From Xylographa opegraphella (Eukaryota), in NCBI GenBank assembly GCA_022813865.1, contig JALDZX010000009.1, forward strand, positions 248,001 to 312,000: a DNA stretch of 64,000 nucleotides. The letters are read 5' to 3'. The number at the start of each line of letters is the position of its first letter. Position 1 is the stretch's first letter. The notes beneath the pieces were generated by a model that had not been told where the DNA came from, searched no databases, and saw only the letters and a program-made list of their open reading frames with translations. Both the position numbers and the translations under genes were made by a program. Below are positions 13,900-57,574 of this stretch, in pieces.

Positions 13900-15430
13900 C
13901 TCCACCTTCCCCACCCGCCCTTCCCATCACGCTCCCTCGTCGAGCACAGAGGTCCTGCCAGCTCAGAATTGCAACACCAAATGTCCGTGCATGCTCACAT
14001 AGAACCCGGTTGGCTCCGGAGCCGTTCCCCACCTCAACGCATCGGACCGTATCAATGCTGCTTCTTCTCCGTGGGTATGCGTGGCCGCGAGCTGTGCCCT
14101 GCGACGAGTGTTGGGGTAGCCAGGTCGCGATACTAGCGGGAGCAACTGCTCAGATGGTGGAGGTTGATGTCGGTTGTGTTTCCTTCGGTACCGGGATATG
14201 GCGATCGGGTTGGGTTCGGCGAAAGCGTTCGCGCTTGGCGATGTAGGCTCGATCGCGGGTATTCGTTCCAGCTGCGGTTGTGGACAGAATCGCCGCGCGT
14301 TTTGCGTTGTTGGTGATGGGAAATTGGCTTTGCCGAAGGCTGCTGTGGTGGTGATGCCTGAAGACTGGTGGGTATGCCCTCCCTCCTTGCGAAGGAGACG
14401 TCGTTGGTGTGGTGTAGCTTTCACGGCTCTAGCATTTCGTCTGGTCTCTCGAGGAGGAGGTCGATGGGAAGCTGGGCGAGCAAGACTCTTTCGACACAGC
14501 GCAAGAGGATGGTGTTTTTGAGCAACTTACATTCCGGCGACTGCTTGGGTGGTGGCGTCCATGATGGCTGTTTGGGAGCGTTGTCGCTCCGATTATGCAG
14601 TGCGGTAAACACGTTAATTTGAGCGTTCAGAAAAAAGTCTTGACGTCTTGATTTGACGCACTGAATCCCAAGCTTGAAGCTGTTCTCGATCTCCCGCTGA
14701 ATGATAGGTATCAAGCGTGGTGTAATGATTGGTTTTACGGTATCAGAATTTTGGAGAAAATCCAGAAGAATGAAACTACCTAGCCATCAGGGCCACTATA
14801 TCTTGGCCTTTGAGGTCGACCTGACAATCAGCCGTTGAGAGACTACTGTTCCGAAGTACTCTATGTCAGCTCTGTAGACCGAGGAAGCTTTGATCTTCCT
14901 GTAATGCTAAGCTAGAGATAGCCTTCCGGCCTTCGATCACTTCCATGATCGACAAGATGGCCTTCCTCTCGTACCCCCAAATGATAGTCTTTGCCAAACG
15001 GTTCAGGCTACTTACAGGCTCATCTTCAAAAGCCAGTTTCTCCAGGAGAGCGAGCTTGAACTGTACCTGAGCGTCATTGGGCAGTTGCAAAGACCGCAAG
15101 ATAATATTTCCGTCCCCATCGGCCCATCGGGTGGTTCCTGGGATACTGTCTCCCTAGATGTTGAGCATACCAATTAGTCTGATCACCTCACTTGACAGTC
15201 TCCGTCGTTCATTGAGAATAGCTGTTTCGGCAGAATCAAAGTAATAGGCAACAATTGATGTGAGCTCTGATTCCGCAATAATGCTCCTTCATCAACTGAG
15301 GCAATCTGCCACACTGTGAAGCACAGAATATGTTCTGTACAGGAAAGCTAAGCAAGGCTTGGAATGGCCCAGAGTCTCATGCTCCTTTCTCGATTTCGTG
15401 CTGACCACCCTCTTTGTCAGCCCATAATTC
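13900..15430 (-). pseudogene. Degenerate protein-coding gene with multiple in-frame stops
   Basis: A frame from ATG near 15432 continues through TGA-TGA and TAG stops into ORF 14866-15099. ORF 14421-14714 and further stop-interrupted protein-like sequence follow. Family not recognised. Confidence 0.45.
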
Positions 15431-18775: not shown

Positions 18776-19976
18776 GAGGAATATGTGACCGGGCCCGAGT
18801 CGTTGGGTTTCCACCCAGCGGACGAGCATGTGGGGAATGACCCGGCCGTGAGGAAGGGCTGCTTGACGGGGGCGGAACGATGGAGTCTCCGCTGATGGCA
18901 TGGTGCTGTGGTCGGGGTTTTGGAAGAGCTGGTCGTTGGGGACGGGGGCTTGAGGGGCTGACCAACTGGTGTTTGATTGATGATCGTGGTATAGCCTTGA
19001 GTGGCGGTGCTTTGGGTGAGAAAGAGTTGTTTGCCTTATGTGAGGGGACTCATAAAGGGCATGCCGAACATGGGGTGATGCTTTAGAGTTCTTCACGGGC
19101 GTGAGAGCCCCTGGACCTTGCCTAAATCCTGGGGGCAGCTTTTTGAGTGCCGCTATTTCGTGGTCTTCCCCGGGAACGCTTCAGTGGGAAGCCCCCTGAA
19201 CTCCTGACTCCTTGCCAAGAGCTTCTTGGGAATGCTTGTTTATCTTTGGGTTCCTTTGGCAGAATCTAGTCCCAACACGGACAAGATGACAGATTCGGAG
19301 CGGAACAATCTCGGCGCTAACAGTTCTTGACTCTTGAGACTCCTCCACCAGAGCAACTACGCTGCACTCAGAAAATATCTCAAAGTACCCATCCGTACCC
19401 AGGCGGCCGAGTAGTGTAGAGCCCAGCCAATCATCTTACCATAAAACAGCCACGGCTCACCTGCGAGTCTGGATGTGGAAGAGGGGAACGTGTTCCGTGA
19501 TGATGTCGAGAGAAGGTGGGCTGATCAAGGGCGATCTTTCTGCTCTTTGGTCCTTCGGGTGCTGCGGATGTGCTTCTTTGAGAACGGCACCACCGTCACT
19601 GACAGGATGATTGAATCTGCGACCATCAGTTCGATCTCGTTATTAGCGCTCGCGTCGCTCACGACCACTGCCTTCGTCTAGCCGCTTTACAAGTGTACAG
19701 TACACACATGTAACACGCTCCCGAAAATGAACTCATTGGGTAAATCCACAAGAAGGGTTCTGCTGTGCTTAGATTTAGAAAGAACGCCATTGACCGGAGG
19801 GCTCTGATGCCGGCGACGCTACCTTCCGTAGCAGGATTGATTCCATGGTGACGAGGATGAAGCATTTACTTCCAGCATGTGCTTTCACTCATGCTTGATT
19901 CCCTTGCTTGATGATGTTTGTTTTGATATCCTGCTTTTCGTTGACTGTTTCCATGACCTCTTGAGCGGTCGTTACC

Positions 19977-22077
19977 ATGACTCGAATCACGCCTCGAACT
20001 TGTCTCTACCCTCTCACTGGTAGTCTCCTTCTCACCTTCACTCTCTCCATCGCACTCACCTTCCGTTCTGACCACTACTGTTATGCTGGCACCTGTGGCG
20101 AATGGCTCTTCCCCCTCCAGGCACGACTACACGTTGTGGTATGGTACTTCTGGGTCTCCATCTCTGTCGCTTTCCTCGCCGTGCGCGCTTTTCACCCGCA
20201 GCTGCGGCGCTTCCTTGTACGGCCTGTGCTGGATCGCAAACTTCTACTACTGGGCAAACGTCTGACGATTAGCGGGCTATTGGCTTTCATATCGGTTGTC
20301 TCACTCTACGGTATTGTTGTCGGTATCTGGTGGATCAGGTTGAGAGACTACTTTGAGGCACGCGGTAGCGCCGCTGGTGTTTATGAGGGGAACAAGCGTC
20401 TCGCAGCCATTGCCCTGACCGGTCATTTTTGCGACATCACTATGGGAATGGTCTTGATTCCGATTTCTAGACATAGCGCACTGGCCTCATTTTTCAAGCT
20501 TTCCGTGTCCACGACGCTTGCTTTTCACATGTTGATTGCATATACACTCTTCACTCTGGTCCTTTTGCATGCATTTCTTTACGTGTCGTGGATCCCTGTA
20601 TTCGAAAGTCTTTCGCAAAATCTTCGGATGGTTTACCCGATCCTGAACCCTACATATCTATACAACGAGACCTGGCCTGGCAATACTTCTCCATTAGGGG
20701 TCTGGCGCGCTTCTCTGATATTTACCGGTCTCACGGCTACCACAATAATTTGCCTAATATTCCTCACCACGCTACCTAGAATTCGAGGAAAGCATTTTAA
20801 CTTATTCTACTTCACTCATCTTCTAAGTATCGTGGCCGTTATCGTTATATGCCTCCACGCAAGCACGATGTTCTACTGCACAGCTCCTGGACTCGTCATG
20901 TGGGTCCTCGATTGGGGCATGCGACTGTATGAATTGAGGAAGAAATTGGATGGCAAAGTCATACACTTGGGAAATGGGTGGTACAGGTACAAACCATTTA
21001 CGATTATCCGGTCCAATGCAAACTGGCTAACAAATACCAAGCTTGATCTTGGGACTTCCTCGACACCGTCTCGACGGCTGTGCGTGCAAATCCCCACTGG
21101 CTCATTTCTACATACATCATGCCGAGTCGTCAGTACGAGAGCTCCATCCATTCACGACCATCACCCATCTCGCGTCCCAGAACAGGCTTACCCCTCCAAC
21201 GGAAAACGATCTGCCGGTACAGTTTCTCTTCCGTAAACGCGGTATAGCGACCGCTTCTGGAACCACGCCTAAGAAATATGCATGGATATCAGTGCTCAAT
21301 TTCTTCAGTATGAGACTGAAGCCATCTTTTCAATGGACGGACAAGCTCGCCGGCCTGGCTGACCGCTCTTCATCCATACCAGAAGATGTCGAGAAGATCG
21401 CATTAGACCGTTCAAGCTTGACACCCCGATCTGGTCAATTGCAAACCAGCAATATCGACCAAGCCCAGCCCGTGGCAATGGTAGACATCGGCCTCCGCCT
21501 TGAAGGCCCATATTTTACCCCAGCCGATCCTTCGCGTTATAAGACAGTCATCTGTTTCGTCGCCGGTACCGGTGTCAGTGGGGCGATCGCCATAGCCGCC
21601 GCATTCATCGATCTCAAGAGGCAGCAAGTGGCCGTCCAGAAAGAATATACTTCGTCGAATACCAAAGAAGCGTTATCCGTGCCCGCTTCATGCTCGTCAT
21701 CGAAGTCGTCCGCCTCGAGTACATGGCAACGCTGTGTTGTTTTCTGGAGCGTGCGGGCCGACGATTATGTCGAGCTACCCTTTTTCAACGGTAATTTCCT
21801 CGCTTCAACCAAGAGTTTCTTTCATGCGTTCCTTGACCAGGCTAATAGCTTCGACTTCTCAGACCCTTCCGCCTCACTCGAACTCCGCATCCACCTCACC
21901 GGCAAAGACCGGCCGCGACTTGACGTCGCCGAGGCCCTTGCGTCCATATGCAACGAGATGCCGGGAGGCTCAACTTGGTGTTACCTTTCCGGCCCCAACG
22001 CCTTCATCGCTGCAGGCGAGGCGGCGTGTAAATCCCGCCCAGGAGTGGACTTTTATGGGGCCAGGTGGGATATATAA
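19977..22077 (+). CDS. Ferric reductase-like transmembrane oxidoreductase (FRE/NOX superfamily)
   Basis: Heme His pairs (FHMLIAYTLFTLVLLHA; THLLSIVAVIVICLHA), FAD motif HPFT, NAD(P)H motifs EGPY and VAGTG; introns about 20987-21041 and 21791-21861. Confidence 0.9.
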
Positions 22078-23373: not shown

Positions 23374-24723
23374 ATGGAGACTCCGTCGTCCCGAAGCTCC
23401 ACGAGTTCTGCCTCCAGCTCTATAAAATCAGTACCCGGCAGTCCCACGAGCTCCAATTCCAGCATTGAAGATGCCGGACGGTCTCGACGAAACACTGCAA
23501 AAACTCTCTCTGCAACTCAATGTGCAGCTCTCAGCGAATTGAGAAGCCTATGTCGCACCAAGAACGTATATTGGAATTCTGCAGACCATGAAGGCTGCAG
23601 GATACCGCCAAGCAACGACGATGTTACATTATTGTATGTCATTCGATTTAAGCCTGCTTGCCCAATTTAGCCATCAGGACATCTGTCGATGCCATCTTGC
23701 AAGTATTGATTGAGTATCACCTAGGCGATATCTCCGCGCCCGCGACTTCGCCCCACAAGCCGCCTTCAAGCAATACAATGCCACTGTCATATGGCGGAGG
23801 AAGCTCGCACTGGATGAAATGTATAGGACCGCTGAGATTTGCCACTTTGAGGCGATAAGACGACTGGTAGATCTCTCCCATTACCTGTTTTTGACTTCTA
23901 TGAAGCATTACTGATGCTGTATGGCTATCAGATGCCACAATGGACAGGTCGACGAAGTCGGAATGGCGTACCCATATTCGTGTACTCGGTCTCCAAAACA
24001 CGGCCCGAGGACTTGCTCACGACAAGTAAAAAAGACCCCAGCCTCTCAAGCGTCTTCCTGCCAGCAGAATACTCGACGCAATTCGTGCAGCCACTATGTG
24101 CGCGATTACACGTCGACCGTGTCATGCCGTGCTCGATCTTCATCATCGACCTCACGGGCGTCGGGGTCCGCCATTTTTGGAACCTGCGCGCACATTTGCA
24201 GAAGGCCAGCACCATGGCCACGTCGCACTACCCAGAGTCCGTGGACAAGATATTCGTAAGTTCTCAGCGGCATTGACTCCATAGCTAGCCCCATCTTCTG
24301 ACATCTTTCGCTTCCACCCAGATCCTAGGCGCGCCATCCTTCTTCCCCGTCGTGTGGGGCTACATCAACAAGTGGTTCGAACCGAACCTGACCTCGAAGA
24401 TATCGGTCCTCGCCCACGCCGAGGCGAAGGCGGTCTTGTCACAGCACATCGATCTCGCGGACCTGCCTGCATCCTACGGCGGTACCTTGCCCTGGGAGTA
24501 CGGCACGAACCCGAACTTGGACGACGAAGCTCGAGAAATGGTTGGGAGCTTTGCGGATAACTGGATCGAAGGGCCGACCAGGTACGTCTCGAAGGAGGAC
24601 GGGGACGAAATCCACGCTGCGGGCACGGAGGGAAATGGTTTGCGGCGGACGGTTTTGGCGAAACTGCCCGTGCGGAGGGAGGAGCCGGGGGTGCTGTTCG
24701 GGGACGGGGAGGGCTGTGTGTAG
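23374..24723 (+). CDS. CRAL/TRIO (Sec14-like) lipid-binding protein, multi-exon
   Basis: DDVTLL|RYLRARDF, GVPIFVY, IIDLTGVGVRHFWNLRAHLQ..HYPESVDKIF, LPASYGGTL. Confidence 0.9.
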
Positions 24724-25505: not shown

Positions 25506-27217
25506 TCACGCTTTCGCTTCCGCCTCAGCCAGCGCCTCGGCATAGGCGTCGGCATAGGCTTCGGCATAGGCGTCCGCGGAGCGCTGCATGTGGTGGTGGT
25601 GCCCGGCGCCGTGTTTGGCATCACGTCTGTGGGACAATAATATTAGCGAATGTCCGGTCAAGGTTGGTCGAAGAGCTAGGTGTCGTACTTCTGGGGAGCG
25701 TCTGGAGCGGCAGCGCCGGGTGCACCTCCACCTGGGGGTCCGCCGCCCATGCCGCCTGGTGGGCCTCCTCCCATGCCACCAGGGGGGCCTCTGCCCATGC
25801 CGCCTGGAGGGCCTCCCATCATACCGCCTGGAGGGCCGCCAATCATACCGCCTCTACCGCGGCCGCCCCAGCCACCTCTGCCACGGTCACCGCCGCCTCT
25901 TCCACGGTTTGCATCTCGTCTGTAGTGAAACACTGTCAGTGAAAGTCTGCGGGAAATGGTCGAAGAGCGATCGTACTTCTGAGGAGCGTCTTGTGCGCCT
26001 CCGCCTGGTGCACCTCCACCTGGCGGTCCTCCGCCCATGCCACCAGGGGGCCCTCCACCCATGCCACCTGGTGGGCCTTCTCCCATGCCACCTGGAGGAC
26101 CTCTCATCATACCGCCTCTACCCTGGCCGCCCCAGCCACCTCTTCCGCGGCTACCGCCGCCTCTTCCACGGTTTGCATCACGTCTTGATCAGCATCAGTG
26201 TGAGCGTTCGACAGAAGAGAATGCAACAGCGTACCTGACATGGTTGTGGTGTGCGCCGCCGTGTGCTGCTCCGCCGTGGAAGGCTTCTGCGTAAGCGTCT
26301 CGTCTGAAGAAGAGAGACGTTAGCATATATATGTACGATGGGATTTCAGGTGAGCTTACTTTGACGGTGGGGGTCCTCCGCCCATGGCTCCCATCATTCT
26401 CCCACGACCACGATCGCCGCCTCCGCCTCCTCGTCCACCGCCTCGTCCACCGCCAAATGGGTAGCCTGCTTCGGCGTCGGGGTATGCATCGCGTCTGGAC
26501 AAAAGTCAATGGACATCAGTCGGTAGCGCTGACAGTGACAGTGTCTCACTCTTGGTGGTGGTGGTGGTGGGGGTGATGGCCACCAGATCCGTGTCCATCT
26601 CCGCCGTGGCTGTGGAATGGTTCCGCATCACGTCTAACCACATGTCAGCCAATGTTCGGTAGTTTTGTTGTGAGAATATTTTCTTTACTTGTGGTCGTGA
26701 TGATGAAATCTACCTTTACCACCGTAGCGTGCTTCAGCGTCGGCCACTGCTTCCGCCTCCGCTTCGGCCTCTGCTTTTGCTTCTGCTTCTGCCTCTGCTT
26801 CTGCCTCTGCCTCTGCTTCTGCCTCTGCCTCTGCTTCTGCCTCTGCCTCTGCTTCCGGCTCCGCTTCCGGATAAGCTTCTCGCCTTCCAAACAAGTCAGC
26901 ATGCAAGTCTTCATGGTAAAAGACCAGTAAAACTACTTGTGATGTGCTTTTCCTCTCTTAGCGTCGGCGTCGGCGTCGGCTAAAGCTTCTCGTCTTCAAA
27001 GGTGTCGTCAGCAAGAAAACCCTCAACAGTGTCATAGGTGGACCTACGCATGGTGCTTGTGAGCATAGGCCTCTGGGTATGCGTATGCTTCAGCCTCAGC
27101 TAATGCATCCGCATACGCTTCTGGGTAGGCTGAAGGATCGGCCCAGGCCAGTGGGTTTGCGATCGCAACAGCTGTGAGAGAGAGAAAGGAAAGGACGACG
27201 GCACGTGAGAAATACAT
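25506..27217 (-). CDS. Secreted Kex2/Ste13-type polypeptide precursor (KEP-like), about 422 aa, 9 exons, His-rich and Gly/Arg/Met-rich peptide units
   Basis: Exons 27217-27048, 26993-26937, 26883-26689, 26633-26550, 26494-26360, 26303-26235, 26183-25977, 25919-25689, 25626-25506. All introns are GT..AG, 51-62 nt, with CTRAY branch sites. Signal peptide MYFSRAVVLSFLSLTAVAIA; KR/RR/AR/ER followed by EA/DA/YP/EP dipeptide runs. Confidence 0.88.
25627..26183 (-). repeat. Tandem duplication of an exon+intron cassette, with internal GPPGGM minisatellite
   Basis: Exons 7 and 8 both encode RDANRGRGGGxRGRGGWGG...(GPPGGM)n...DAPQK; the introns following both begin GTACGA and contain GCTCTTCGACCA. Confidence 0.9.
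26750..26870. repeat. Coding 6-bp microsatellite (GARGCA)n encoding a long (EA)n spacer
   Basis: Plus-strand runs of TGCCTC/TGCTTC. Confidence 0.9.
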
Positions 27218-29817
27218 GGTAAGAAAGAGATTGATGACGTGAATGAATTTAGAGGAGTAGTAGTGGAGAGAAGAAGCAGACGGTCTGTATCTCCAGTATG
27301 CTTCCAAGTGTGCTTTTAATGCTGAATAGGACCAAGGGGGAAGCCCTAGGATTTATACTGGTGTAGGAGATATGCTCTCCGTGGATACATCTTGATACAA
27401 CAAAAATTTCACAAACAGTTTGTTTCAATTCATTGATACTGCACTCTCCACGCCATTCCGTTCAATGCCCCAACAGGCGTGTCATTAGTGAAGGTCGATC
27501 AGGCGTGATTCATGGGTTTGTGGTTGGTGACCCAGGTTTCGGTCGAGAACAGAGCGGGCATGCAGAAAAGACAACATATGACATCCGTACATTGGGCTAG
27601 AGCAGACAGGAATGGACGCCGTGGCTGGCAGGGTCCGTGACGCCTTGAGCCATACGCGTTACTCGTTGCCGCGAAGTCCCAACGAGTAACAGACCTCAGA
27701 AGCGGGAGTATCAGTGGCGAGGCACAGTATGGTGCGGTTGACAGCCTCCACATTCAGTTGACGATGTGGTAGCCAGAACCAAGCATACCTCATTGATGTG
27801 GTCTAGTGCCCGGTTGGGTAGTCTAGTCGTAGGCCCACGCGTAGTCTTTCGAAACAAACAAGTAATATTTGGGAGAGATGTATCGTGTGTTAGGTCCACA
27901 ATCTTGAACGTTGAAAGACATAATGAGGACAAGCTCGAGCTTTTACTATGATGACTCGTGGGCTTGAGCGTTAGCGGGAAGGCAGCTAGACAGTCCCCTA
28001 AAGTGCTGCCTAATAGTTGAACTTGATACCATGCAGATCCCCCCCGGACGTCCATCGCGGCTGGGTTTCCAGGGGGATGGTCAGCCCCTAAACCGTTGCG
28101 TGATCCCGCCCGCCCGCTTTTAATGCACGAGGGTGGGGACGCGCGCATGTTGTGGATTCTTGCGTAATTCCAACATCTCCTCCACCTCAGCAGGGCCAGA
28201 CGGAGGCTGGGACTGCGACCCAAGACAGGGTGTACCAGATATTGCTGCATGACAATCACGTCTCCAGCCTCACACGGCCGAGGCCTGTACTCACTCGTGC
28301 CACAGCATCAGACCAAGATAACAGATCGGACAGCAAGTACGCCGCAACATGTCCCCCAAAATCTTCGTCCGATGTCCCACAGGCACAGTCTATACGACCT
28401 GAAGAATTATGTACTGGATTCAATGAGCCTGTTGATCCTTACAATGCGAAAAAGCACATGGTGGTAGTGCAGGCATGTGTAACTTGAGGCTGCGTAAAAC
28501 GAAGATCCTGCCATGATTTATTTCATATGAGGGTCTACCTGGTACCGCTCACGCACGACATCGGTCCTGTAGCAAGATTTGGGTGAGCAGTGGTCTAGAT
28601 CACCGCACCTGTGCGGCGTAACGGGGTCGCCTCATGCCTGTCTATCCACGTATCTACAGTGCACAGCATTCGCAAGATGCATGCCGTATTCAGCATAGCG
28701 TTCACTCATGATTTTATTCTGTTGCTACATTTTTCTGGATCTTATAACCACTGTATCTCCTTGTCAGTCTTGATATCCCAGTCCAAGCTGTTTCGCCATG
28801 TGCTCATGTTATGACCCCGTTGCCTTATTGCTCCACTTCATCCTCTGGAGCTGTTCTCAAACAGAAAGTGTCTTCCCAGACGGGCTCCACCATTGTGATA
28901 AGAAGAGCAACTATGTCCAGGTACTCGAGACACGTCCAAAGCACGCAATTTAATGCTACTCTGTATACAATACCCCGGTAAGTTTGTCTCGTTCGCCTGA
29001 AAGTCTCCAAGCAAATCCCGCTGTATCTATCGTCTTTGTCCTTGCTTTATATCCTACTCCGCAAGTATTGGATATACTGCCGCGTCAAGTCAGCATGATA
29101 ATATACTCAACTCTCCCTCTCGTGCGTGAAGAGCTTTCCGTCTGAACGATCAAAACCATTAATCGATGCCATCTTATACCTGACACAACACTCGGTGCAA
29201 TATGTCACGATCAGAGTCTCCATGGCCCAAACCTCTTCTCTGTCAGTCCTACAAATCAATCCGCCCCACTCCCCTATACCGTCCCTCTAAGAGCTGTGCT
29301 CAATACCCGAGATCCAAGCACTGAACTCCCTCTGCTCTCAAACGACCAGAGCAAGGCCCCAATCCGCGTCCTGGTAGATAGCCAGGCTTTTCGGCTCGAG
29401 GCTGCTCTCTACAGTAGACGCCGTGGTGCTGGCGACGATGACACAGTATCCTAGCTTCTAAGCGGTGAGAAAGGCGAGAAAGAGGAGGTGGCAGATGGTA
29501 GCAAGATCCGGCACTCAAGCAACGTTTGGCAGTTCAAAGATTCACAGGTCCAAGCACCCATATCTCAGCAGCACCGGCGCCTTAGTGATTTGCCATGATG
29601 TACAATTAGAAGCTATGTATTGCCCGACGGCGCCGTCGCCTGTATCGCGTCTATCTATCGAAACAAGAGTCGTAACATCGTGCTATCCAGATCTATCCCC
29701 GCTTCGAAAACCACAAAAAACGCCGTTATGTATGCTTGCCCCACCCGCCATGCTTATGCTTTTCAACCCTTAGACCCGTCTCTCGTACAGCCACCACGGT
29801 GCCAACGTCAGCAGCAC

Positions 29818-41684: not shown

Positions 41685-43592
41685 TCACTCCGACACCACC
41701 TGCACGGCATGCTGCGTTTTGCCCCACAACCCTTCTACCAGCGGCTGCGGAGGCCCCACACCCAATTGCGACTCCTCCCGAATCACATACCCATTCACCA
41801 GCGCCGGCGTATCCACCTGTGCGTGCGAAGGGCCCACCTTCTCCTCTTCTCCTCCCCTCAGCTGACACCCCTCCCCCACCCCCCCCTCTCGCCCCTCCCC
41901 GTCCCTCAAAAACCGCCTCAACACCTTCCCGGCCGCATTCCTCGGAATCTCGCGCACGAGACTCACGCCTTCGACCCACTTATACCGCGCCAAGTCAGCG
42001 GCCATGAATGCCTGAATCTCGCGCAGCGACAGAAGCGGCTGCTCGTCGCTCACCGGGACCACAAAGGCGTGCGGCACCTCGCCGGAGAGGCCGCGACGGT
42101 CCGGGACGCCGACGACGGCGACGTCGCGCACGCGCGGGTGCCGCAGCAGGACGGCCTCCAGCTCGGCGGGCGACACCTGCCACGCGCGCACCTTGATGAT
42201 GTCCTTCTTGCGGTCGACGATGTAGACGCGGCCGGCGCGCGCGTAGGCGACGTCGCCGGAGCGGACCCACCCCGGGGAGTGGTACAGCGCCGCGGTGGCG
42301 GCGGGGTTGCCGACGTAGCCGAGGGTGGGGTGGCGGGGGCGAACGAGCAGTTCGCCGGGGTGGTTGTCTGCGGTGATGGGCTCGCCGGCGTCGTTGACGA
42401 TTTGGAGGGCGAGGCCGGGGACGGGGGCGCCGACGCTGTCGTCGGTGGTGTCGTCCGGGTAGACGAGCGAGGTGATCCAGCCGCATTCGGTCATGCCGTA
42501 GACGGGGACGATGTGCGCGGCGGCGGGGAGGAGGCTGCGGAACTGGTTCTGCACGCCGAGGCTGAGGGGGGCGCCAGCGGTCCAGACGTGCCGGATGGAG
42601 GCGAGCCGAGTGAGGGTGAAGAAGGGGGAGGAGATGGCCGCGAGCATCATGGCGGGGACCATGGGGATTTCTGTGATCTGGAAGCGCTCGATGGCGGCGG
42701 AGAAGGCGGCGAGGTCGAAGCGCGGCATGAGGTAGGTGGGGATGCCTTCTCGCAAGGCAGACATGTGCACGATGGGTGCTGCGAAGGCGTGGAGGAGTGG
42801 TAAGGATACTAGGCGAGAGATCTGCCAGGGTGTTAGCTGAAGTTGTCGGAGGCTTTGAGGTGATGGGATACTTGGTATGGTTTCCCGACGGAACTCTGCT
42901 CGATGAACGAGGCCACATCGATGCAGTGAGCGTGTGACATCATGGCTGCTTTGGGTAGGCCGGTTGTTCCGCTGGTGGAGTATAGCATTGCTGCTGTGGT
43001 CTCTGCTTCGTGAGCGTTGAGCGTCACCCACTCGCACGTCCCGTGCTGGAGGAGCTCAGTCCACGAACGATACTCCCTAGGTAGTGGCTGGTCGACGGGG
43101 TCACAGATGTAGATGTTCGAACTTGGAATTCCAGACTCGTTAGCGGCCGCTTGTGCTTTCTGGTACAACTGGGACTCCGTGATGATATATTTGGGGTTGC
43201 ATCCCCTAAGCTGACTGGCGAGCTCTGAAACTGTGTGGCCTGGATTGCCTCCAGTGACGCAGCCCCCCGCGCCGATTATGCCCAGGCAAAGAAGTGGATA
43301 GAATACCTTCCCGTGGTCAACGACTTGTGTGATTGAAGTTTACATAGTGACATACATGGTTGTAGCTTAGGATACAGACATAGTCACCAGTCCGTAGTCC
43401 AGTAGCCTTCAGTCCAGCAACGATGTGCCTGACAAGTCTTCTGGCTTGCGAAGCTGAGATTGACCTATTGGGTCGAGAGGTATCAATGATGATCTAGGGA
43501 GGTAAGTAGACATAAGATTCTTGGCTTTTGTCCCTTACTGCTTTCTCCTGATCATATCCGGTGTTCCCCAATGTCCATGACACAACATCCAT
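41685..43592 (-). CDS. 4-coumarate:CoA ligase-like adenylate-forming enzyme (AfeA-like), multi-exon
   Basis: YSTSGTTGLPKA, YGMTE, GELLVR, SGDVAY, IVDRKKDIIKVRAWQVSPAELE, IPRNAAGKVLRR; ATG 43592 (MDVVSWTLGN). Confidence 0.92.
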
Positions 43593-45145: not shown

Positions 45146-46723
45146 ATGGCTTCGTGGCACGATAACCGAGGTTCTGTATTGAACGATGAAAGAGCTTTTC
45201 GAGGTGACCTATCTTCAATAATTGGAAGGCTTGACTATCATCCTATATTTTTACCGGAGCTTTTCCACGACTCCCCGAAGCCCTCGAGGTCGCCGATAGT
45301 TCACGATGCACCTTCAATCGTAGCTACGGCGTCGCTGTCCCGATCGTCAGCAGAGGATGTCGAGGCCGTACTCCCATACAAAGACGTGGAAATGCAATTA
45401 CCTGCCAAACGACAAAACCGTCTGCTAAGAAACATTCGACACAAGTTCCTGAATGTCTACAAGAGACTTTTTTCCATATACGTGGTTGCAAATCTTATCG
45501 CCCTGGTTATCGTCCTGTCTCAAAGCAACACGGGCAGTTTGAGCTCGGCATCGAATCTCAGTATCCCTATTTCCATAAATGTCCTTGTCGCGGCGCTCTC
45601 AAGGACAGAATACGTTATCAACATGCTTTTTACTTCGGTCGTATGGATTCCTCGGACGGCTCCGCTAAGACTCCGACGCGTTGTTGCCAAGGTGTATGAA
45701 TATGGCGGCATTCATAGCGGTGCCGGTTTCTCTGCAGCCCTCTGGGTGGTCGCTTTCACCATCCAGATGACTCGAGCCTTCTTGTACGATGAGACTTTCG
45801 AGTCATCAATACTGGCCTTCACATATCTCTTGTTCTTCTTCCTTTTGGCTATCAGCATGTCTGCGTATCCCACCTTTCGCCGAATGCAGCACAACTCCTT
45901 CGAAGCGATCCATCGCTTCGCTGCTTGGATATCTGTAGCACTTTACTGGGTATTGATTATGCTGATATCGAGCTCGCTCCATAAGCAAGGCGGAGTCTCG
46001 TTCGGTCATGTACTTATCATCTCTCCATCTTTTTGGATCTTGTGCGTCTTGAGCTTCCTCATTGTCCTACCTTGGCTTCGCTTGCGCACGGTCAGCGCTC
46101 GGCCAGAACACCTCTCGAAACATGCGATTCGGCTTCACTTCGACTATACGAAGATTGGACCCTGTCAAGGATTACGAATTTCAACTCGGCCATTGCTGGA
46201 GTGGCACTCCTTTGCGACAATTCCCTCTAGAAGCTCCGGAGACTTCTCTATCCTCGTCTCAAACGCGGGAGACTGGACGAAAGCCAACATCCAATCGCCG
46301 GTTCCAAAGTATTGGGTCAAAGGAATCCCTGTAACTGGCTTTCTCCGCGTAGTCCAACTTTTCCGAAAGGTTGTAATCGTCACAACTGGTTCAGGAATTG
46401 GCCCTTGTCTTTCTGGCTTGATTTATGCGCAACAAGCTGGCACTCCATTACAATGTCGCCTGCTCTGGTCAACGCGGGACGCTGAACCAACGTATGGGAG
46501 AGAAGTTGTTGAGGAGGTACTTCGAGCAGACCCACGGGCCATCATACTCAATACAAGGCCTGGTTCGCCAAGGCCTGATCTGGTAGCACTCACATATCGA
46601 CTCTATATCGAGTCGGGAGCAGAGGCGGTGTTTATTATTTCGAATCCAAAGCTAACTTATAAAGTGAAATACGGTATGGAGAGTCGTGGCGTTCCCGCTT
46701 ACGGACCGATATTTGATTCTTGA
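45146..46723 (+). CDS. TmpA-like membrane flavoprotein (TM helices plus FAD/NAD(P)-binding domain), no introns
   Basis: KVYEYGGIHSGA, HNSFEAIHRF, LEWHSFATIP, SNAGDWT, TTGSGIGPCL and terminal YGPIFDS. Confidence 0.85.
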   Translation: MASWHDNRGSVLNDERAFRGDLSSIIGRLDYHPIFLPELFHDSPKPSRSPIVHDAPSIVATASLSRSSAEDVEAVLPYKDVEMQLPAKRQNRLLRNIRHKFLNVYKRLFSIYVVANLIALVIVLSQSNTGSLSSASNLSIPISINVLVAALSRTEYVINMLFTSVVWIPRTAPLRLRRVVAKVYEYGGIHSGAGFSAALWVVAFTIQMTRAFLYDETFESSILAFTYLLFFFLLAISMSAYPTFRRMQHNSFEAIHRFAAWISVALYWVLIMLISSSLHKQGGVSFGHVLIISPSFWILCVLSFLIVLPWLRLRTVSARPEHLSKHAIRLHFDYTKIGPCQGLRISTRPLLEWHSFATIPSRSSGDFSILVSNAGDWTKANIQSPVPKYWVKGIPVTGFLRVVQLFRKVVIVTTGSGIGPCLSGLIYAQQAGTPLQCRLLWSTRDAEPTYGREVVEEVLRADPRAIILNTRPGSPRPDLVALTYRLYIESGAEAVFIISNPKLTYKVKYGMESRGVPAYGPIFDS

Positions 46724-56965: not shown

Positions 56966-57574
56966 TCATCTGCGCATGCCCATCTGACCGCGGGGTGCAC
57001 GACGCGCGTGGTCGTGGAGGGAGCGCGCGTCGTTACCGTGTGCGCGTGCATGGGCGTGAGCTGCCGCATCTCTCTTGGACGCGGTCAGGTTGGGGCAAAG
57101 AGTCATGGTCAAGTCCGAGCTCGACTCGCACACGGCAGTGGCCCAGTTGTCCTCGGGGAGCGTGTAGGCAGCGTGACAAGATCCTTGGCCGGCAGGGCAG
57201 GTGACTTCGCGGCAGGCTGACTCCGATGGGACGAGTGCAAGGCCGTCGTCGGAGAATGGGAAGCCGTTCACGTTGGAGACGTCGTACCAAAGTTGACTAC
57301 CGTCCAGGGTGTATTCGAATTGCGTGATGGTGTCCTCGTTGCCGAGAGCCGTGGAGATTTTGATGGAGATGCCACCGCCCTCGGAACGGGTCTGGTACTC
57401 TTCCTTGTATGGCTTTCCGTGCGGCTCAATGGTGACCATCTCACTGGAGCTGTCCCCGACAGACCAAAGATACACTGGGTAGGCACATTCGTTGTTGACT
57501 ATGGCCGAGCTTGCTTGAGCATTTGAGGCGAAGGCTAGCACTGCTGCCAACGCGCTGATCTTCGTGAACTGCAT
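56966..57574 (-). CDS. Secreted Bys1-family (thaumatin-like fold) protein with His-rich C-terminal tail
   Basis: Signal peptide MQFTKISALAAVLAFASNAQA; AIVNNECAYPVYLWSV, GGISIKIS, TQFEYTL..LWYDVSNVNGFPF, AYTLPED. Confidence 0.85.
   Translation of the reverse strand: MQFTKISALAAVLAFASNAQASSAIVNNECAYPVYLWSVGDSSSEMVTIEPHGKPYKEEYQTRSEGGGISIKISTALGNEDTITQFEYTLDGSQLWYDVSNVNGFPFSDDGLALVPSESACREVTCPAGQGSCHAAYTLPEDNWATAVCESSSDLTMTLCPNLTASKRDAAAHAHARAHGNDARSLHDHARRAPRGQMGMRR

Follow-up and report, generated by a model that had tools for sequence, protein, structure and literature searches.

A nine-exon gene predicted on the minus strand

The DNA analyzed here is a 64,000-nt stretch of the Xylographa opegraphella genome (the window). 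On its minus strand lies what, judged by its sequence, appears to be a fungal gene for a predicted secreted protein that is cut into about nine distinct His-rich and Gly/Arg-rich peptides. The predicted spliced coding sequence runs from an ATG at position 27217 to a stop codon ending at 25506 and constitutes a single open frame of 422 amino acids; a TATAAA box (27352..27357, minus strand), recognized by its match to the consensus only, is located 140 nt upstream of the ATG. Splicing by coordinates yields nine exons of 170, 57, 195, 84, 135, 69, 207, 231, and 121 nt, and all eight predicted introns start with GT, end with AG, are 51 to 62 nt long, interrupt the frame in phase 2, and contain a branch motif of the CTRAC, CTGAT, or CTAAT type. 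The residue pairs spanning junctions 1 to 8 are AR, KR, KR, ER, KR, RR, KR, and KR. All figures given in the first-pass annotation, as well as the position of each phase 2 intron directly before an Arg, were reproduced, and the nine-exon model is confirmed in silico as a prediction of splicing. The protein is of low complexity and has no Cys, and its exon pieces gave no Pfam match except for a subthreshold PARP match to a Glu-Ala run.

Exon 1 (27048..27217) encodes a signal of about 20 amino acids, a ladder of 16 X-A/X-P dipeptides, and a His-rich core of 5 residues, and intron 1 (26994..27047; 54 nt) splits the Ala codon of AR. The subsequent exons open with the Arg of a putative processing site. 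In exon 2 (26937..26993), this residue is followed by a 5-dipeptide ladder, an internal KR, and a His-rich core of 5 residues; across intron 2 (26884..26936; 53 nt; KR), exon 3 (26689..26883) carries a 25-dipeptide Glu-Ala ladder and a Gly/His core of 12 to 13 residues. Intron 3 (26634..26688; 55 nt; KR) leads to exon 4 (26550..26633), with 2 dipeptides and a core of 23 residues including 10 His, and intron 4 (26495..26549; 55 nt; ER) leads to exon 5 (26360..26494), with 4 dipeptides and a Gly/Arg (RGG) core of 35 residues. Exon 6 (26235..26303), located between intron 5 (26304..26359; 56 nt; KR) and intron 6 (26184..26234; 51 nt; RR), specifies 3 dipeptides and a His/Gly/Ala core of 15 residues. 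Exon 7 (25977..26183) has a single dipeptide and a 65-residue core with RGG and Gly/Pro/Met 8-mer repeats; intron 7 (25920..25976; 57 nt; KR) is open in frame, its retention giving 441 amino acids, and resembles intron 8 (25627..25688; 62 nt; KR). Between these two introns, exon 8 (25689..25919) is a duplicate of exon 7 with one extra 24-nt repeat and a core of 73 residues. Exon 9 (25506..25626) extends to the stop codon and encodes one dipeptide, a His-rich core of 11 residues, a QR, and a 12-dipeptide ladder without cargo. The C-terminal 24 residues (25506-25580, minus strand) are pure X-Ala spacer like the exon 1 leader; full trimming would leave nothing of this tail, which may serve to balance charge or reflect the loss of a final exon. 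The assignment of one peptide to each exon in the first-pass annotation is broadly correct but does not hold for exon 2, with its internal KR, or for exon 9, with its internal QR and spacer tail. That all introns lie within processing sites also stands, but only six of the eight sites are dibasic, AR and ER being monobasic.

The protein contains eight R-[D/E]-A motifs, every one of them at an exon junction. Random placement would produce this arrangement with a probability of about 6e-21. Since the data themselves supplied the motif definition and introns that arose by duplication do not count as independent, this value means no more than that some cause underlies the pattern. The window contains 172 candidates resembling introns; RCGNGA follows 7 of them, and all 7 belong to the precursor gene, whose intron 2 was left out by the donor pattern used for the candidates; the background was 24 of 5,652 HAG sites in the window. 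A donor-branch-acceptor-R[DE]A pattern matched three junctions of the gene and had no match in 100 shuffles. Both counts are partly circular, since the patterns were derived from the precursor gene itself.

By domain, the neighboring genes encode RabGAP-TBC, ferric reductase-like, CRAL-TRIO, kinesin, and Bys1 proteins; this fungal set of neighbors and the short GT-AG introns are those of a filamentous ascomycete. The CRAL-TRIO gene (23851-24720, plus strand) lies in convergent orientation to the precursor gene, at a distance of about 0.8 kb from the latter's stop codon. About 3.4 kb past the same stop codon lies the ferric reductase-like transmembrane gene (19965-22077, plus strand), and a possible link to metal-binding peptides may be due to chance. 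An open frame of 525 amino acids (45146-46723, plus strand), apparently with multiple membrane segments and with no Pfam match at an E value of 0.001, is adjoined by an AMP-binding enzyme gene (41685-43055, minus strand). The Bys1-domain protein (56966-57574, minus strand; 202 amino acids) has a C-terminal tail that opens with KR-DA and continues as a His/Ala/Arg-rich stretch, and this tail is possibly a second His-rich peptide that would be released by Kex2.

Predicted processing signals and peptide cores

The signal peptide was predicted from hydropathy and the -3/-1 rule. Residues 7 to 17 form the only hydrophobic stretch (maximum KD11, 2.39), and the maximum KD19 after residue 25 is 0.09, so by hydropathy a later transmembrane or GPI-like stretch is absent. 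The putative signal site, A-I-A|N, would be cut after residue 20, and the first ladder, of 16 dipeptides, follows directly and in register with it. In total, the protein has 70 X-Ala/X-Pro dipeptides, corresponding to 140 spacer residues. The ladders after junction sites 1 to 8 comprise 5, 25, 2, 4, 3, 1, 1, and 1 dipeptides, and that after QR comprises 12, such that the signal site, the eight junction sites, and QR all carry ladders (1 to 25 dipeptides). The internal KR of exon 2 carries none and precedes Gly-Lys, not an acidic residue. Ladders as long as the three longest (16, 25, and 12) were not reached in any of 20,000 composition-preserving shuffles. The logic of signal peptide, xR site, and X-A/X-P ladder proposed in the first-pass annotation is supported by this register. 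At position 14241 on the minus strand, we noted a further run of six X-A/X-P dipeptides; its frame has no signal-like start, and it was judged a chance occurrence.

Predicted cleavage and trimming would leave two kinds of cores side by side, in agreement with the mixed cargo suggested previously. Six are His rich (5, 5, 13, 23, 15, and 11 residues; 29 His together), and three are Gly/Arg rich (35, 65, and 73 residues; about 50% Gly, with RG/RGG motifs). Tyr is present in two of the nine cores, which are unrelated to each other, and apart from exons 7 and 8, the similarity among the cores is limited to composition. His at position 2 or 3 is an N-terminal Cu-binding layout. Four of the six His-rich cores would have it on their trimmed ends, which is no enrichment over chance (P = 0.73). 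The spacers hold 48 of the 56 acidic residues of the protein and 2 of its 44 Lys/Arg residues; the remaining 42 Lys/Arg and the 29 His are located outside the spacers.

Duplication of exons 7 and 8

Exons 7 and 8 form a tandem duplicate pair, distinguished in length by a single 24-nt repeat. In an alignment of 68 codons, third positions account for 20 of the 29 base differences (P = 9e-5), and the dN/dS ratio is 0.146, indicating that the protein frame has been kept under selection. Introns 7 and 8 are identical at 42 of 55 aligned bases, and with a z score of 5.0, they rank first among the 28 intron pairs; the next-best pairs reached 3.9 and 3.7, and 25 of the 28 pairs remained below 3. The similarity of both the exons and the introns indicates that an exon-plus-intron unit was copied. 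Growth of the gene by exon duplication, as put forward in the first-pass annotation, is thus supported for this pair, but common descent of the remaining exons is not demonstrable, their cores being alike in composition only.

Relatives of the leader

A search with exon 1 among 1.84 billion 50%-cluster representatives returned four matches, of which two are real; the other two, P0002 and P0004, were discarded as long, unrelated repeat proteins. Exon 1 is conserved in P0001, in P0003, and in P0005, a cluster-mate of P0003. P0001 is 96% identical to exon 1 and shorter by one whole dipeptide, with the register kept, and its last residue coincides with the point at which exon 1 runs into the stop codon of intron 1, which indirectly suggests the presence of the same intron. 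P0003 and P0005 share the signal and the ladder, here of 12 dipeptides, and have other cargo behind ER, QR, KR, and AR sites; in P0005, the ladders behind the QR, KR, and AR sites comprise 1, 2, and 7 dipeptides. In P0003, the sequence continues through the first site without interruption, which was counted against a fully conserved layout and means that the record either stems from spliced RNA or has no intron there. P0005 is a partial hypothetical protein of Lambiella insularis (MCJ1473873.1), a lichen fungus of the Lecanoromycetes and the source of the only named homologue of the precursor gene. It resembles the predicted precursor in its homologous signal and leader ladder, its xR-D[AP] units, and its Gly/Pro-rich last unit, whereas its cargo peptides are entirely different.

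Against longer proteins, none of 927 candidates scored with exon 1 and none of 8,000 with alignment A1, and among proteins of near length, alignment A1 recovered P0001 and P0003 only. A metagenome scan with alignment A1 confirmed 0 of 378 stretches. The architecture pattern was found at 17 metagenome loci, which are chance matches because none has a second such junction or a peptide precursor frame. The absence of a full-length relative from these searches is a weak result. The best scores in the ESM Atlas were 0.80 and 0.79, below the 0.9 line used for leads; the latter belongs to an MF_alpha cluster that is a weak neighbor of P0005.

DISCUSSION

We consider it likely that this gene encodes a fungal prepro-polypeptide that gives rise to linear secreted peptides on processing by Kex2, Kex1, and Ste13, and that the gene arose through successive copies of a single unit. 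The copied unit would consist of an intron, the Arg codon, an acidic X-A spacer, the cargo, and bases 1 and 2 of the P2 codon, and the introns would lie inside the cleavage sites because the duplicated unit started and ended there. By default, all eight introns would be removed constitutively. Based on established knowledge of the pathway, signal peptidase would then cleave after residue 20, Kex2 after the Arg of the seven dibasic sites and probably also of AR, ER, and QR, Kex1 would trim the basic C-terminal ends, and a Ste13-type dipeptidyl aminopeptidase would remove the ladders, giving six His-rich peptides of 5 to 23 residues and three Gly/Arg-rich peptides of 35 to 73 residues. The concentration of acidic residues in the spacers and of Lys/Arg outside them further suggests charge masking in transit, by which the 48 Asp/Glu residues may neutralize the 42 Lys/Arg and 29 His residues elsewhere during secretion. 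AR, ER, and QR are noncanonical Kex2 sites, Glu and Ala at P2 being cleaved slowly in vivo, and they are counted against this processing scheme. Among Kex2-cleaved sites, acidic P1' and small P2' residues are enriched and varied P2 residues are tolerated (PMC2515848). The Kex2/Kex1/Ste13 scheme with its KR-EA/DA logic is that described for KEX2-processed repeat proteins (KEPs; PMC6339444), and detection of KEP-derived peptides trimmed by Ste13 is on record for other fungi (PMC9769878).

The mixed cargo, its fast turnover behind a fixed leader, the precise trimming, and the cationic His/Gly composition make defense and metal binding the best guess for a function. Provided that processing takes place, a role of the freed peptides as metal-binding (Cu/Zn), cationic defense peptides at the hyphal surface has, judging from their composition, somewhat less than an even chance; a matrix or adhesive role is clearly less likely, a signal or effector role slightly less so again, and a small share is left for other roles.

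It seems unlikely that the precursor is processed into structural products, with Gly/Pro/Met repeats and His-rich pieces forming a metal-cross-linked or coacervate hyphal cement. Such a role would have a precedent in Ustilago Rep1, from which Kex2 releases surface peptides that coat the hyphae (PMC4617103), and it would suit the lack of Cys and the exon 7 and 8 cores with their high Gly content and 24-nt tandem repeats. However, Rep1 is described as having no Ste13 signature (PMC6339444), cores of 5 residues are ill suited as building blocks, and the precise trimming of N termini suggests that the free ends are important. A still less probable reading is secretion of the protein mostly intact, as one disordered polyampholyte in which the xR-DA motifs are relics of duplication. 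Three of the ten predicted sites are monobasic, cleavage is predicted only, and SP7 of Rhizophagus is described as acting whole despite its Kex2 motifs (PMC5293756). Against intact secretion stands the dipeptide register, which is strict behind the signal site as well as behind each processing site and is kept in the relatives; without exposure of N termini, it has no evident purpose. SP7-like effectors resemble the predicted precursor in being secreted by a symbiotic fungus, in having hydrophilic repeats with [KR]R motifs, and in occurring in several splice forms (PMC4617103, PMC5293756); they are specific to the Glomeromycotina and have repeats of one family, and the comparison carries no claim of homology.

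The first-pass annotation proposed that the peptide library could be varied by exon skipping, and a cassette gene of this kind, in which skipping or retention of introns 1 to 5 shifts the peptide mix by tissue or condition, is unlikely. With any of the 128 combinations of skipped internal exons, the frame stays intact and the upstream P2 residue and the Arg are retained; skipping rebuilds the Kex2 site because each downstream exon opens with a wobble-position purine followed by the Arg codon. Likewise, retention of any of introns 1 to 5 leads to a stop codon directly after the P2 codon. Splice variation has been proposed for the apidaecin gene (PMC1847501), and SP7 has five splice forms (PMC4617103). 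Yet frame symmetry is an automatic result of duplicating a phase 2-2 exon-intron unit, and the stop codons result from ordinary GTAG, GTAA, or GTGA donors in phase 2. Furthermore, among alternative splicing events in 23 fungi, 61% were intron retention and only 3% exon skipping, and short introns are recognized via intron definition (PMC3925392). Both features are expected as by-products of unit duplication and ordinary donors, and variation by skipping, although permitted by the frame, is not supported. We attach equally little credence to a more elaborate version, in which a fungal counterpart of the apidaecin gene is used as a splice-programmable library of His-rich metal-binding versus RGG nucleic acid-binding peptides aimed at the photobiont or microbiome, as part of an as yet undescribed family in lichens that combines a constant leader with interchangeable exon-encoded cargo.

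Yeast alpha-factor and Ascomycota alpha-pheromone precursors share the KR-EA/DA logic with Kex2, Kex1, and Ste13 (PMC6339444), and the precursor of an alpha-type mating pheromone or of a dikaritin (a cyclic RiPP) would have the same processing signals as those seen here. The MF_alpha cluster below the lead line in the ESM Atlas would also favor a pheromone. Both identities are nonetheless highly improbable. An alpha-type pheromone was rejected because the protein has no Cys, its short cores are not repeated or near identical, and there was no MF_alpha match in the eight exon pieces tested (exon 2 being too short). An ustiloxin-type dikaritin was rejected because a repeated Tyr-containing core is absent, the two cores with Tyr being unrelated. 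Among the neighboring frames tested, there was no tyrosinase match, and DUF3328 had no match in the 81 frames tested of the 132 between 12 and 41 kb of the window or in 24 long frames, a search in which genes with short exons can be missed. That the locus is a pseudogene or a mis-spliced model, as the predicted nature of the junctions and, weakly, the lack of a full-length protein with exon 1 might suggest (cluster representatives can be short fragments), is hardly credible in view of the intact frame, the low dN/dS ratio of exons 7 and 8, and the leader conserved in three further records.

The preferred reading, a Kex2-processed precursor of linear peptides, invites comparison with known families. 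To our knowledge, Ece1 of Candida albicans, the precursor of candidalysin, is intronless and has no Ste13 ladders. It is a Kex2-cut precursor with eight moieties, only some of them repeated, and in this respect is similar to the predicted protein, but its known product is a membrane-damaging peptide (PMC7329392), whereas the cores here are hydrophilic. As in KEPs, there is a signal peptide and no transmembrane segment (here by hydropathy only), cleavage at KR and RR would give 8 fragments of 5 to 75 residues (the rule being at least 4, with none of >100), and X-A/X-P dipeptides stand behind the cleavage sites as in KEPs with a STE13 signature. In contrast to KEPs, the spacers are very long, and only two fragments are similar, whereas three are required; this is an approximate test, in which Umemura's grouping thresholds served as a proxy and 1 of 28 fragment pairs, that of exons 7 and 8, passed 65% identity and 70% coverage. 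Because the three-repeat rule was missed in this approximate test, we do not file the precursor as a formal KEP. The first-pass annotation had set the gene apart from KEPs made of near-identical repeats; similar repeats are indeed few, but the distinction was overstated, since KEPs often hold several repeat types and Ece1 is mixed (PMC7329392). In the main texts of two KEP surveys (PMC6339444 and PMC7329392), the words "intron" and "exon" do not occur, and their supplements gave no motif matches, the Umemura tables consisting of accessions and the Le Marquer table perhaps being a picture. The accessible text of a study of lichen RiPP clusters (PMC12048977) contains "intron," "KEP," and "Lambiella" 0 times. 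In the literature searched, which covered few subscription papers, we found no description of introns inside the Kex2 sites of a fungal precursor.

The resemblance to the honey bee apidaecin precursor that had been pointed out is well founded. There, a conserved N terminus is followed by exons that each encode one distinct peptide, with a dibasic site and an X-A/X-P spacer, and a variable exon number and splice variation have been described or proposed (PMC1847501; PMC3415428). The differences are that apidaecin is from an insect and has 28-residue units of one Pro-rich family, whereas two unrelated cargo classes of 5 to 73 residues are predicted here. The likeness would be one of gene layout, with no claim of homology, and the position of an intron inside the apidaecin site is not part of it; the precursor gene works like that of apidaecin but is not a member of the apidaecin family. 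The arrangement represents a neat variation on established peptide precursors, as the concepts of one peptide per exon and of mixed precursors have already been published.

The gene illustrates how a precursor can grow and diversify by the copying of exon-intron units whose borders lie inside a protease site. Should skipping be demonstrated, the gene would represent a rare case of regulated cassette exons among fungi. Because all nine predicted cores are linear, short, and easily synthesized, they lend themselves to direct tests of metal binding, antimicrobial activity, and effects on algae. FIMO and seed-scoring KEP pipelines could be misled by the shared spacers, and since published KEP screens require three similar repeats, mixed precursors may escape them. 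With the screens possibly blind to such precursors, a class of secreted peptides in lichen fungi may so far have gone uncounted.
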